Shown here one piece after another: positions 59,862 to 64,000 of a DNA stretch of 64,000 nt. Source of the stretch: Thermotogota bacterium (GTDB lineage Bacteria > Thermotogota > Thermotogae > Thermotogales > DSM-5069); contig JAKPGA010000020.1 in the NCBI GenBank assembly GCA_029551145.1, positions 466-64,465 on the forward strand. The letters are read 5' to 3'. The position numbers and the translations under genes are program-made. Every line of letters begins with the position of its first letter. Positions within the stretch are counted from its first letter, which is position 1. The notes beneath the pieces were generated by a model. It had not been told where the DNA came from. It saw only the letters and a list, made by a program, of their open reading frames with translations, and ran no database searches.

Positions 59862-60233
59862 ATGAGAATCAAAAGATCGGTACACGCAAGAAAGAAAAGA
59901 AGAGAAAGGTTTTTGAAGGCTGCAAAGGGTTACAGAGGTGCAATCAGTAGAAGATACAAACTCGCAAAACAGCACTACTATAGAGCAAAATGGTATGCGT
60001 ACGTCGGTAGAAAGATAAAGAAAAGAGATTACAGAAGTCTGTGGATTACAAGAATAAACATTGCGGCAAGGCAAAGCGGTTTGAAGTACAGTCAGCTCAT
60101 ACATGGACTGAAACTGGCCAACGTTGCTGTCAACAGGAAGATGCTTGCCGAACTCGCGGTGAATGACCCGTCCGCGTTCAATGAATATGTGAAGGTAGCC
60201 AAGGAACAACTTGAAAAGCGCGCTGCTGTTTGA
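59862..60233 (+). CDS. rplT: 50S ribosomal protein L20
   Basis: AKGYRG, RKIKKRDYRSLWITRINIAAR, NRKMLAELAVNDP. Confidence 0.98.
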   Translation: MRIKRSVHARKKRRERFLKAAKGYRGAISRRYKLAKQHYYRAKWYAYVGRKIKKRDYRSLWITRINIAARQSGLKYSQLIHGLKLANVAVNRKMLAELAVNDPSAFNEYVKVAKEQLEKRAAV

Positions 60234-60236
60234 ACG

Positions 60237-60263
60237 AAAGGGCATCCATCTGGGTGCCTTTTT
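60237..60263 (+). terminator. Terminator after rplT
   Basis: GGCATCC-atct-GGGTGCC-TTTTT. Confidence 0.8.
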
Positions 60264-60264
60264 G

Positions 60265-60293
60265 TGTTATAATGTATGTGAATCCTTTAACAA
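60265..60293 (+). promoter_or_regulatory. Extended -10 promoter plus Rex-like operator upstream of the hydrogenase
   Basis: TGtTATAAT (60265-60273); ATGTGAA-TCCT-TTAACAA (60276-60293) matches TTGTGAA-N4-TTCACAA with 2 mismatches. Confidence 0.7.
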
Positions 60294-60313
60294 ACTTCTC
60301 GCGAGGAGGGTTC

Positions 60314-62071
60314 ATGGTGGCTAATGTGCAAATAGAAATCAACGGTAGAAAGTACGAGGTACCTTCAAATGTATCAATAGTGGAAGCCTGTAACCTTGTT
60401 GGTGTCTATGTACCTACGCTTTGTAACCACCCGAGGCTTGAACCTACTGGAGCTTGTCGCGTCTGCGTTGTAGAAGTGGAAGGAGCAAGGAATTTGCAGC
60501 CCGCTTGTGCCACAAAGGTTCAGGATGGTATGAAGGTCAAGACTGCGACAGACAGAGTAGAAAAGGCCGTGAAGTTTAATCTCTCACTTCTGCTGTCAAG
60601 ACACCCTAAGGACTGCATGACCTGTGAATCGAATGGCCGTTGTGAATTTCAAGATCTGATCTACCGCTATAACGTGAAAGATCTCTTCCCAACAGAGGAA
60701 AGAGTCAGTGGTATCTATGATGACAGCTCACCGGCGATAGTCAGAGATCTTGAGAAATGTATCGTGTGTGGAAGATGTGTAAGGGCGTGTTCAGAACTTC
60801 AAGGAATGGATATCTACTCGATGGTTGAAAGAGGTTTTGAAACTTTACCACAAACAGCCTTCGAAATGCCCATCTATGAAACAGATTGTATCAGTTGTGG
60901 ACAATGCTCGGCATTCTGTCCTGTCGGTGCTATCACAGAAAACAGCAATGTGAGAAGAGTTCTTGAAGAACTTGAAAGACACGACAAAATACTTGTAGTG
61001 CAAACGGCACCAGCGACGAGGGTTGCGATAGGTGAGGAGTTTGGCCTCGAGCCAGGCAGCATCTCAACTGGGAAGATGGTAGCTGCGCTCAGAAGACTTG
61101 GCTTCGACTATGTTTTCGACACGAATTTCACCGCCGACCTCACTATCATGGAAGAAGGCTCGGAGTTTCTTGAAAGACTCAAAAAAGGCGGCCCATTCCC
61201 GATGTTCACCTCCTGCTGCCCTGCTTGGATAAATATGGCTGAGAAACTGTACCCGCAATTCCTGAAAAATCTTTCTTCCTGTAAATCTCCTCACCAGATG
61301 TTGGGACCACTTGTGAAAACGTACTTTGCGAAGAAGAAAGGACTCGACCCAGAAAAGATCTTGGTTGTCTCCATAATGCCCTGCACTGCGAAAAAAGACG
61401 ACATAACAAGGCCACAGCACAAGATCGAAGATATGCCCGGTGTGGATATAGTTCTTACAACCCGTGAGCTTGGCAAACTCATAAAGATAAAGAAGATCCC
61501 ATACGCTTCACTGCCAGATGAAGAGTACGACGATCCACTCGGCGAATCAACGGGTGCCGCTGTGATCTTCGGTGTCACTGGTGGCGTGATGGAAGCAGCG
61601 CTCAGAACCGCTTATGAGCTGGGCCTTGGAAAGCCTCTGCCAAAGATTGAGTTCAACAGCGTCCGTGGCTTTGAAGGGATAAAGGAAGCGACGGTAGACT
61701 TTGACGGGAAGATATTGAAGGTTGCAGTTGCCCACGGAGGTGCAAATGCCAGAAAACTGCTGGACAAAATCTCAGCCGGAGAAGCTTATTATGATTTTAT
61801 AGAGATAATGGCGTGCCCGACGGGTTGTATAGGTGGCGGAGGACAACCAAAGAGCTTGGATAAAAATGTGCTCGTGAAGAGAATGGAAGGTATCTACACG
61901 ATAGATGAAAAGAGTACGATAAGAAAATCACACGAAAATCCATCTATCAAGAAACTGTACGAAGAGTTCTTAGAGCATCCTCTGAGCCATATCTCTCATG
62001 AGCTTTTGCATACCACCTATGTAGACCGATCAAAAAAGAAGGCAAAGGCTTTCGAGAGTGCCAAGGCTTGA
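60314..62071 (+). CDS. hydA: [FeFe]-hydrogenase group A catalytic subunit, with N-terminal 2Fe-2S, His-ligated 4Fe-4S and 2x4Fe-4S domains
   Basis: H-cluster motifs TSCCPAW, MPCTAKK, EIMACPTGCIGGGGQP; HxxxCxxC and two CxxCxxC motifs. ATG 60314 follows GAGGAGG. Confidence 0.95.
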   Translation: MVANVQIEINGRKYEVPSNVSIVEACNLVGVYVPTLCNHPRLEPTGACRVCVVEVEGARNLQPACATKVQDGMKVKTATDRVEKAVKFNLSLLLSRHPKDCMTCESNGRCEFQDLIYRYNVKDLFPTEERVSGIYDDSSPAIVRDLEKCIVCGRCVRACSELQGMDIYSMVERGFETLPQTAFEMPIYETDCISCGQCSAFCPVGAITENSNVRRVLEELERHDKILVVQTAPATRVAIGEEFGLEPGSISTGKMVAALRRLGFDYVFDTNFTADLTIMEEGSEFLERLKKGGPFPMFTSCCPAWINMAEKLYPQFLKNLSSCKSPHQMLGPLVKTYFAKKKGLDPEKILVVSIMPCTAKKDDITRPQHKIEDMPGVDIVLTTRELGKLIKIKKIPYASLPDEEYDDPLGESTGAAVIFGVTGGVMEAALRTAYELGLGKPLPKIEFNSVRGFEGIKEATVDFDGKILKVAVAHGGANARKLLDKISAGEAYYDFIEIMACPTGCIGGGGQPKSLDKNVLVKRMEGIYTIDEKSTIRKSHENPSIKKLYEEFLEHPLSHISHELLHTTYVDRSKKKAKAFESAKA

Positions 62072-62089
62072 GATCTTCGATTGATAGAT

Positions 62090-62115
62090 AAAAGGCGAGG
62101 GTTTCCTCGCCTTTT
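62090..62115. terminator. Terminator after hydA
   Basis: AAAAGGCGAGG-gttt-CCTCGCCTTTT. Confidence 0.88.
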
Positions 62116-62150
62116 CTGTTTTTACCTTTTGTTAAATCTACTTGATTATA

Positions 62151-62179
62151 TTGACATAAAAGTATAAACATGGTATATT
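62151..62179 (+). promoter_or_regulatory. sigma70 promoter of the UgpB-like ABC operon
   Basis: TTGACA, 17-bp spacer, TATATT with TG extension. Confidence 0.8.
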
Positions 62180-62202
62180 CTTGTTGAACTAAAGCGTATT
62201 AA

Positions 62203-62256
62203 GGGTATGGCGGAGAATTGGAGAGGACCATATCCCAAATTGGGGTATGGTCTTTT
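62203..62256 (+). promoter_or_regulatory. Leader terminator/antiterminator switch (GlpP-type candidate)
   Basis: 14-bp terminator stem 62224-62254 plus U tract. GGGTATGG occurs twice (62203 and 62243) and both copies can pair with CCATATCC (62228-62235). Confidence 0.7.
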
Positions 62257-62328
62257 GAATTTCTTCAACGACTTTTACAATCGATTAAAGGATCAAAACT
62301 ACTATTTATCCAAGGGGAGGTGTAGAAA

Positions 62329-63627
62329 ATGAAAAAGGTACTTGTTTTTTTGGTTGTCATTCTTACCGTGCTTAGTTTCGCAAAAACCAAGATTCAGTTC
62401 TGGCACGCAATGGGTGGATGGCGTATCGAAGTTATTCAGAACATGGTGAATGAGTTTATGAAACTAAATCCAGATATCGAAGTCGAAGTACAGTATGTCG
62501 GTAGTTATGAAGAAATCTTGGCCAAGACAGTCTCAGCAGTTCAGGCAGGCACACCGCCTCATGTTGTTCAGCTCAATGAAATCAGTACGCAGAAGATGGT
62601 TGACAGCGGTGTGATCGTACCAGTACAGGATTTGGTTGACAAAGATCCATCCTTCGATGTCGGCTTGTTTCTACCACAGGTTCTGAATTATTACAAAGTT
62701 GGTGGAAAACTCTACTCGATGCCTTGGAACAGCTCAACGCCATTGCTTTACTACAACAAAAATCTCTTTAAAGAAGTGGGACTTGATCCAAACAATCCAC
62801 CCAGAACGTACAGTGAATTGATTGAAGCCTGTAGAAAACTCGTCAAAAAAGATGAAAAAGGCAATGTCATTAGAACCGGTATCACATGGTGCCTCTACTC
62901 TTGGTTTTTCGAAGAGTACATGGCTTTGCAGAATCAACCACTTGTTGATAACAACAACGGAAGAACAGCTAAGGCAACAAAGGTGGTTTTCAACAACCAA
63001 GCCGGTCTGAACTTCATGAACCTTTGGAATACTCTGAGAAAGGAAGGATTGATGATCAACACAAAGCGTGCCGACTGGACCGCTGCAAGACAGTTGTTCA
63101 TCTCTCAAACGGTGGGAATGCTTATCTCATCGACATCGGATGTCGCGCTTTTGATGACTGAGTCTGCCAAACAAGGTTTCGAACTTGGTACCGCCTTCTT
63201 ACCGGTTCCAGATGGCACACCGCGTGGTGGTGTAATCATAGGCGGTGGTAGCCTGTGGATCATAAAGCAGAAGAATCAAGCCGAGGTCGATGCAGCATGG
63301 AAACTGGTGAAATATCTTGCGGAACCTGGACCACAAATTGTATGGCACCAGGCTACAGGGTATTTCCCAATAAGGGTAGATGCAATACAAAAACTTCAAG
63401 CTGAAGGTTACTACAAGGAAAATCCTCACCACCTGACAGCCATCTTACAACTGCTCACAAGTGTGCAAAATTACAACACAAACGGAGCTATCATCGGTGC
63501 GTTTCCAGAGGTTAGAGATGCCATTGAAACCGCTGTTGAGAAGATGATCTCTGGCACTCTGACTCCAAAGCAAGCGCTCGACGAGGCCGAAAAGAACGCA
63601 AATAAGGCAATAAAAGAATACTTCTAA
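62329..63627 (+). CDS. CUT1 ABC substrate-binding protein, UgpB-like (glycerol-3-phosphate/glycerophosphodiester)
   Basis: IQFWHAMGG, YSMPWNSSTPLLYYNKNLF, IGGGSLW, WHQATGYFP. Confidence 0.88.
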   Translation: MKKVLVFLVVILTVLSFAKTKIQFWHAMGGWRIEVIQNMVNEFMKLNPDIEVEVQYVGSYEEILAKTVSAVQAGTPPHVVQLNEISTQKMVDSGVIVPVQDLVDKDPSFDVGLFLPQVLNYYKVGGKLYSMPWNSSTPLLYYNKNLFKEVGLDPNNPPRTYSELIEACRKLVKKDEKGNVIRTGITWCLYSWFFEEYMALQNQPLVDNNNGRTAKATKVVFNNQAGLNFMNLWNTLRKEGLMINTKRADWTAARQLFISQTVGMLISSTSDVALLMTESAKQGFELGTAFLPVPDGTPRGGVIIGGGSLWIIKQKNQAEVDAAWKLVKYLAEPGPQIVWHQATGYFPIRVDAIQKLQAEGYYKENPHHLTAILQLLTSVQNYNTNGAIIGAFPEVRDAIETAVEKMISGTLTPKQALDEAEKNANKAIKEYF

Positions 63628-63685: not shown

Positions 63686-64000
63686 GTGAGAAGGAAGCTT
63701 CTTCCCTATTTGTTGCTGATGCCAACCTATGTAATCATTGTTCTTTTCATATATCTACCTGCTTATGATTCTTTCTATTCGAGTTTTTTCAAGGTATCGG
63801 TCTTTGGTAACAGAAGGATCTTTGTTGGAATACAGAACTATCTTTCTCTGTTCACCGACAAAGATTACCTGGCTTCTGTGAGATTCACTTTGATCTATAC
63901 CCTTTCCACGGTGGTGATATCGATCTTTCTATCCTTTTTCATTGCGCTGTTGCTCGATCAGAAGGTACCTGGTTCGAGGATCTATCGAACACTTGTCTTT
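63686..64000 (+). CDS. CUT1 ABC permease, UgpA-like (3' end truncated by the window edge)
   Basis: GTG after GGAGG; reads LLPYLLLMPTYVIIVLFIYLPAY..FVGIQNYLSLF, open to the end of the window. Confidence 0.88.
   Translation, partial: MRRKLLPYLLLMPTYVIIVLFIYLPAYDSFYSSFFKVSVFGNRRIFVGIQNYLSLFTDKDYLASVRFTLIYTLSTVVISIFLSFFIALLLDQKVPGSRIYRTLVF

Follow-up and report, generated by a model that had tools for sequence, protein, structure and literature searches.

In Bacillus subtilis, GlpP acts together with glycerol 3-phosphate (G3P) to antiterminate the leaders of glpD, glpFK and glpTQ (PMC9604022, PMC10573289), a form of control reported by Holmberg and Rutberg 1991-92 and Glatz et al. 1996, 1998 (as cited in PMC9604022, PMC10573289). 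The 5′UTR of glpD alone renders four foreign promoters glycerol-inducible, and deletion of glpP abolishes the induction of PglpD (PMC9604022). This 5′UTR reads ...AACGGTC-c-TGAGA-tga-GGAGA-GACCACAGC... and continues into the terminator and its U tract (PMC9604022 Table S4). A regulon reconstruction in T. maritima explicitly left the GlpP regulon unstudied (PMC3750489).

Here, we describe a leader in a 64,000-nucleotide stretch of DNA from a Pseudothermotoga, referred to as the window. The leader precedes the operon of a UgpB-like ABC importer and is very probably subject to GlpP- and G3P-dependent antitermination. Knowledge of the mechanism in Bacillus dates from the 1990s, and what is new is the Thermotogota member of the system. 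As in the B. subtilis glp system, the regulator belongs to PF04309, promoter-proximal intrinsic terminators are located in the leaders of glycerol and G3P genes, and the regulon covers a G3P dehydrogenase, glpK and a G3P uptake system. The uptake system is a UgpB-type ABC importer here, rather than GlpT/GlpQ, the host is a thermophile from another phylum, and the evidence for GlpP control is experimental in B. subtilis but sequence-based here.

The choice between a terminator and read-through in a 5′ leader by an effector-loaded RNA-binding protein is also shared with HutP, PyrR, TRAP and BglG/LicT. However, these are other proteins with other RNA signals, none of which matched in Rfam. HutP and TRAP recognize arrays of UAG or GAG triplets, LicT a 29-nt RAT hairpin, and PyrR a specific loop.

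Anatomy of the leader

The leader at positions 62151-62328 is located downstream of an ORF identified in Pfam as an [FeFe]-hydrogenase (60230-62071), and it and the features below are on the + strand. The hydrogenase gene has its own intrinsic terminator at 62090-62115 (11 pairs and a T tract in the terminator scan), and the leader is thus a separate transcription unit. The region around the hydrogenase terminator (62055-62117) gave sub-threshold Rfam matches to enterobacterial sRNA models, such as STnc40 with 34 bits; these matches are terminator-driven, and an sRNA gene at this site was rejected.

The leader starts with a near-consensus sigma-70-type promoter at 62151-62179, consisting of the -35 box TTGACA (62151-62156), a 17-nt spacer, and the TG-extended -10 box TATATT (62174-62179). 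Eleven of the twelve box positions match the consensus, in agreement with the strong promoter noted in the initial annotation. The transcription start is predicted near 62186. The orthologous leaders L002, L003 and L004 have promoters in the equivalent relative position, and the -10 box is placed 5-15 nt ahead of the element in many homologs.

The initial annotation also described two alternative pairings of one segment and an exposed purine loop, and all of these coordinates were found to be exact. The segment is the arm CCATATCC (62228-62235), which serves both as the 3′ arm of the antiterminator helix and as part of the 5′ arm of the terminator. In the antiterminator helix, it pairs with the 5′ arm GGGTATGG at 62203-62210, forming 8 bp with one G-U pair, while in the terminator its partner is the second copy of GGGTATGG at 62243-62250. 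The pattern GGGTATGG-N(10-25)-CCATATCC-N(4-12)-GGGTATGG has a single occurrence in the window and none in 100 dinucleotide-preserving shuffles. The antiterminator loop is a 17-nt purine segment, CGGAGAATTGGAGAGGA (62211-62227), that holds two GGAGA boxes at 62212-62216 and 62220-62224, 8 nt apart from start to start. We propose this loop as the candidate recognition site for GlpP.

The intrinsic terminator at 62222-62256 contains the core GGACCATATCCCA/TGGGGTATGGTC of about 12 bp and the loop AAT, and its base is made of box 2 and the first four U. The terminator scan assigned 16 pairs to it, a number that includes G-U pairs and the A-U pairs with the first four U. The U tract TTTTGAATTT (62253-62262) is, by its sequence, the expected site of premature termination. 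The tract in the window (UUUUGAAUUUC) is interrupted and weaker than the U tracts of both sister copies in the genome, and termination may therefore be leaky.

The binding-protein gene is preceded by the Shine-Dalgarno sequence GGGGAGG at 62314-62320, and GGAGGT is conserved in the alignment. In the 72 nt between the terminator and the start codon (62257-62328), a small hairpin, CUAC...GUAG, is possible around 62301-62325, partly covering the Shine-Dalgarno sequence. RNA thermometers are placed at the equivalent position in the glpF and glpT leaders of B. subtilis (PMC10573289). This spacer is about 190 nt longer in the orthologous leader L004 than in the window. A 41-aa ORF at 62207-62332 overlaps the leader; it was rejected as a leader peptide because the region is kept as RNA helices and because its distance from the gene is highly variable (about 10 to more than 200 nt).

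Predicted folding is consistent with a switch between two states. A 146-nt fold had a z-score of -4.6 relative to shuffled sequences. The antiterminator hairpin in the window was computed at -9.1 kcal/mol at 37 °C and -2.7 kcal/mol at 65 °C, versus -22.3 and -11.4 kcal/mol, respectively, for the terminator. In these computations, the nascent RNA up to position 62242 folds as the antiterminator, while the whole leader folds as the terminator at all temperatures tried. Given the much greater stability of the terminator, the default would be termination, and read-through would need a stabilizing factor.

The UgpB-like importer operon

The first gene downstream of the leader (62329-63627, + strand) encodes the 432-aa substrate-binding protein of a CUT1 ABC importer, with a signal peptide and an SBP_bac_1 domain. 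Its best NCBIfam match is UgpB (NF008211) with 255.5 bits, which is below the cut-off of 411 bits for equivalog status. The best solved relative is the UgpB protein of E. coli (PDB 4aq4), which aligns over the full length with 205 bits, while the next class among the solved relatives, sugar-binding proteins, starts from 98 bits. This margin agrees with the Ugp-type importer suggested by the initial annotation. The score is below the equivalog cut-off, but UgpB is by far the closest family and structure, and the protein is hence named UgpB-like, with a presumed substrate. Of two tryptophan residues that we take to line the G3P site of E. coli UgpB, one aligns to a leucine in the binding protein. 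The substrate is presumably G3P or a glycerophosphodiester, and it could be a related compound.

The binding-protein gene is followed by the gene for a UgpA-like permease (63686-64000, + strand), which runs off the window. Further along the contig, there is a second permease gene, followed by a hairpin resembling a terminator and by a chemoreceptor gene that has a promoter of its own and is separate from the operon. The BPD_transp_1 domain was accordingly matched twice in the operon, once for each permease. Like UgpBAEC in E. coli, the operon thus combines a binding protein with two permeases, but no ATPase gene was found next to these three genes. The two systems would also differ in their control, since regulation of the E. 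coli ugp genes by PhoB and cAMP-CRP takes place at the DNA, rather than through an RNA switch as proposed here. Orthologs of the binding protein in Fervidobacterium (L007, L009 and L010) do not have the element upstream.

Three copies in the Pseudothermotoga genome

A genome-wide search for GGAGA-N(2-5)-GGAGA identified a second copy of the element with the same layout. A covariance model, R1, was built from six Pseudothermotoga sequences with the terminator as its only structure. When applied to the genome itself, R1 identified exactly three sites, with 84.2, 82.6 and 73.7 bits. The next matches were the reverse strands of these three sites or had 19 bits, and nothing apart from the reverse strands was above 30 bits.

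The second copy precedes an operon that encodes a 598-aa alpha/beta-hydrolase, GlpK and GlpP. The third copy is located on the opposite strand of the same contig as the second, and precedes genes for a G3P dehydrogenase of the glpA/D type, with DAO and BFD domains, and its Pyr_redox_2 partner. Its sequence is GGTGTGG-ta-TGAGA-cct-GGAGA-aag-CCACATCCC-tttt-GGGGTGTGGC-TTTTTT. GlpP (PF04309) is encoded once in the genome (G000:C50:72026-72544, 215.9 bits), and its best solved relatives are 3kts and 1vkf, both of which were deposited as glycerol uptake operon antiterminator proteins. With glpP located behind its own copy of the element, the circuit would be positively autoregulated.

The hydrolase gene (G000:C50:68697-70493, corresponding to L012:4698-6494, + strand) is the first gene in the glpK-glpP operon. 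The protein has an N-terminal membrane or signal segment, a Hydrolase_4/Abhydrolase_1 domain in its first 170 residues, and an extended, hydrophobic C-terminal half. One possibility is that it acts as a lipase or esterase to release glycerol, perhaps from lipids.

Distribution across the Thermotogota

Searches with R1 identified the element in 85 of 151 Thermotogota genomes, which carry between one and four copies each and represent 29 of 48 genera. PF04309 was found in 120 of the 151 genomes. All element-bearing genomes but one encode GlpP (84 of 85), the exception being an assembly that is 81% complete, and 30 of the 31 genomes that lack PF04309 also lack the element. Within a single genus, the element is present in three GlpP-positive genomes and absent from ten GlpP-negative genomes. 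The odds ratio for co-occurrence is 70 (p = 3e-12), when genomes are treated as independent of phylogeny. The two are also close on the chromosome: 67 of the 85 genomes have a copy of the element on the glpP contig at a distance of no more than 10 kb, and 31 of 131 copies are within 300 nt of the gene. Another 36 genomes contain GlpP without a match to R1; the model may be too narrow for these, or their GlpP may use other sites.

To characterize the downstream genes, 132 matches to R1 were fetched with their flanks, and a call of the first downstream ORF was possible in 128 cases. The most common was a DAO-type G3P dehydrogenase (83 ORFs), followed by a UgpB-like binding protein (19, from several families of the phylum), an alpha/beta-hydrolase (16), glpK (6-8), and a PHO4 phosphate carrier (1). 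The remaining match, L143 (G035:C118), is followed by a short ORF (1) and lacks the GAGA boxes; it was therefore treated as a false positive, which leaves 131 copies. Control of Ugp-type importers by the element thus appears to recur in the phylum and is not a peculiarity of the window. The matches in front of the hydrolase come from six genera and two families of Thermotogota. At several loci, for example L107 (G027:C45), long runs of N are present inside the downstream DAO gene, and product lengths are meaningless there.

The PHO4-family phosphate transporter gene is located 210 nt downstream of the element at L084 (G065:C24:63971-64051, - strand), in which the first box is degenerate (AGTGA). 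This arrangement hints that phosphate uptake may be tied to the G3P regulon in that lineage.

Consensus and covariation

The consensus of the element begins with NNNTGG as the 5′ arm, followed by a single base, a first (R)GAGA, a spacer of 3-4 nt, a second (R)GAGA, and 2-3 purines; CCANNNN and NNNNTGG then flank a loop, and the U tract comes last. The most conserved part across the 131 homologs is GAGA-N3-4-(R)GAGA.

Covariation was examined in an alignment, A4, of 104 matches aligned to R1, a model from which the antiterminator helix is absent. The terminator helix is 99.3% paired among these 104 homologs, and nine of its eleven pairs have changed on both sides. The antiterminator helix, formed by columns 5-18 with columns 43-51, is 72.7% paired, as compared to 27-46% when the partner is slid along the alignment. 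Its covariation score is 0.230 versus 0.170 in shuffles, none of which was as high in 500 trials. Double changes are present at the four inner pairs (UA/CG, GC/AU, UA/CG and AU/GC), while the outer two pairs are present in the window but not kept throughout the phylum. In an alignment-free comparison, the 5′ segments paired better with their own terminator arm than with those of other copies (mean -8.5 versus -7.0 kcal/mol), and none of 2000 permutations was as good. Since both helices covary in the 104 aligned homologs, the arrangement is more than a product of chance.

In the lineages G137-G146, the boxes and the terminator follow straight after the -10 box, without a 5′ arm. With little or no such arm in some lineages and 4 bp in B. 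subtilis, the GAGA boxes next to the terminator arm appear to be the core of the element and the hairpin auxiliary. Among the loci in genomes G136-G144, GA-rich boxes, GAGAGAGAAAAGAGAGAG, directly follow the -10 box at L095, L097, L100, L110, L112, L113 and L146, and there is no antiterminator hairpin at these sites. Genomes G138-G142 and G144 contain two or three PF04309 genes or gene fragments each.

Comparison with the glp leaders in Bacillota

The 5′UTR of glpD in B. subtilis could be aligned to the window (A5) as a 5′ arm, one base, (T/G)GAGA, three bases, GGAGA, and a terminator arm that begins with (G)ACCA. Both leaders thus have two GAGA boxes directly before the 5′ arm of the terminator and a short upstream segment that is complementary to the start of this arm. 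The antiterminator helix is 8 bp here and 4 in B. subtilis, and the terminator has about 12 bp and a 3-5 nt loop, as opposed to about 26 bp in B. subtilis. Another difference is that glpP here closes the hydrolase-glpK-glpP operon, and the copy of the element in front of that operon implies autoregulation.

Similar leaders were identified in other Bacillota. The glpK-glpA spacer in Thermoanaerobacter mathranii contains AGTATGG-t-GGAGA-ttt-GGAGA-a-CCATATATAG... (R1, 40.6 bits), the glpP-glpD spacer in Halobacillus seohaensis contains GGTC-GGAGA-tat-GGAGA-GACCACG... (R1, 24.5 bits), and the region before glpD in Bacillus sp. FJAT-49705 contains GGAGA-aat-GGAGA-GACCAC... (box pattern). The GGAGA repeats running into the terminator, which the initial annotation attributed to Bacillus glp leaders, are verified for the glpD 5′UTR of B. 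subtilis (PMC9604022 Table S4) and extend to the glpD/glpA leaders of Halobacillus, Bacillus sp. and Thermoanaerobacter.

The exact box pattern matched a single site in each of two Bacillales genomes, and both sites are glpD leaders. A site with one mismatch was located inside a coding region, and the reversed pattern, used as a control, gave none. A second model, R2, built from all 104 matches, was too terminator-generic in the Bacillales: it matched ordinary terminators and missed the true glpD leader at genome-scale thresholds, where the exact box pattern succeeded. In Bacillus sp. FJAT-49705, glpP is followed by a HAD hydrolase gene and by genes for a UgpB-like ABC importer. At L050:7553-7738, the spacer in this genome contains CGAGA-cggtat-AAGAGA-CCACAAA and a long terminator; its boxes are degenerate and more widely spaced, and it was missed by R1.

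Overall, we consider it likely that the helix with tandem GAGA boxes represents an uncatalogued class of element and serves as the general site of RNA recognition for the entire PF04309 family in both Thermotogota and Bacillota.

Proposed mechanism and alternative explanations

According to the mechanism that we propose, transcription would begin at the promoter at 62151-62179, and the nascent RNA would first form the weak hairpin 62203-62210/62228-62235, with the two GGAGA boxes displayed in its 17-nt loop. Without G3P-loaded GlpP, the terminator at 62222-62256 would displace the hairpin, and RNA polymerase would halt near 62256-62262. When G3P is present, G3P-loaded GlpP, supplied in trans from the hydrolase-glpK-glpP operon, would bind both GAGA boxes and hold the hairpin. 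The bound protein would also occupy box 2 and the CCA arm, both of which are needed by the terminator. The shared arm CCATATCC would thereby be kept from the 3′ arm of the terminator, such that the terminator fails to form and transcription continues into the ugpB-like operon. Control by the element would extend to the two other glycerol operons in the genome. GlpP binding and its dependence on G3P are inferred, as are the site of termination and the importer substrate.

The initial annotation offered two options, namely a Ugp-type importer under the control of GlpP or a switch of a new kind that senses a ligand. The first has strong support from the presence of glpP in the genome (PF04309, 216 bits), from the same element ahead of the glpK-glpP and G3P dehydrogenase operons, and from its tracking of glpP across the Thermotogota. 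The second found no support. It would take the form of a riboswitch in which formation of the terminator is blocked by direct binding of G3P, or of some other small ligand, to the purine-loop hairpin, independently of any protein. An aptamer-like hairpin that overlaps a terminator is indeed the layout of an ON-riboswitch, and the regulon is metabolically coherent. Such a riboswitch would be new, since the region 62185-62262 matched no Rfam family with E-values up to 10. However, the element is small, with a helix of 6-8 bp, a loop of 13-17 nt and two conserved boxes of 4-5 nt, and the homologs contain no further helices or conserved junctions. Direct ligand sensing is also at odds with the near-complete overlap with glpP (84 of 85 genomes), the absence of the element where glpP is missing (30 of 31), and the in vivo requirement for GlpP of the equivalent leader in B. 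subtilis (PMC9604022). We therefore regard this reading as very improbable. Even less credible is an attenuator of the ordinary constitutive kind, or a leaky terminator, that acts without any regulatory partner and whose repeat and boxes would be due to chance, anti-Shine-Dalgarno-like, or GGA motifs of the CsrA type. Short alternative pairings arise easily near terminators and CsrA binds GGA motifs in loops, but such a reading is hard to reconcile with the presence of only three genomic copies, each at glycerol genes, with conservation and covariation across 29 genera, and with a pattern that did not appear in any of 100 shuffles. The box spacing of 8 nt is moreover too short for bridging by a CsrA dimer, which needs more than 8 nt between two sites. 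CsrA, TRAP/HutP and RAT readings were all rejected on the basis of the anatomy and the regulon. A target of ANTAR proteins, which consists of two tandem small hairpins with hexaloops, the second of which overlaps the terminator (PMC3369931), was likewise rejected; the leader has a single hairpin with a 17-nt loop, and the regulon is also unfitting.

A closer alternative retains GlpP but not the antiterminator hairpin. GlpP would bind the boxes in single-stranded form and sterically hold the 5′ arm of the terminator, in a HutP-like manner, and the upstream GGGTATGG would assist in particular lineages or not at all. This is a variant of the main explanation, with the same identity of the system. 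It would account for the boxes and terminators without a 5′ arm in G137-G146, for the short GGTC/GACC complementarity that is all that B. subtilis and Halobacillus have, and for the base of the terminator stem, which is formed by box 2 and the purines after it. In most lineages, however, the 5′ arm covaries with the terminator arm at four pairs and prefers its own arm in the permutation analysis, which indicates that the helix is under selection where it is present. We therefore find binding without a hairpin rather unlikely as an account of the window, although not negligibly so. Given the little or missing 5′ arm in G137-G146 and B. subtilis, stabilization of the hairpin cannot be the whole mechanism either, and the lineages without the arm suggest that box binding beside the terminator arm would be the essential act, with the hairpin as a helper. 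For the Pseudothermotoga host itself, we lean towards antitermination by GlpP with stabilization of the hairpin as the operative mode.

Implications

For specialists, a mechanism long known in Bacillus makes the finding satisfying but unsurprising, and the description at the family level, covering Thermotogota and Bacillota, is the more interesting by-product. The 131 examples form a compact and well-aligned RNA family with two covarying alternative helices, which is absent from Rfam and could be submitted there; it could also guide the annotation of GlpP targets in further phyla. At about 60 nt, the thermophilic version is short and would be handy for structural studies of RNA recognition by a TIM-barrel-like protein. 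As a portable part for induction by glycerol, the B. subtilis leader is already in use, and the leader in the window could serve likewise in thermophiles.

For the organism, the UgpB-type importer of a hydrogen-producing thermophile gains a candidate regulator and an inducer logic, and the GlpP regulon of the Thermotogota is reconstructed. If the recognition site is indeed general to the PF04309 family, the GlpP regulon in Thermotogota would be wider than in Bacillus and would include UgpB-type importers, a membrane-anchored hydrolase, glpK-glpP, G3P dehydrogenase and, occasionally, a PHO4 carrier.
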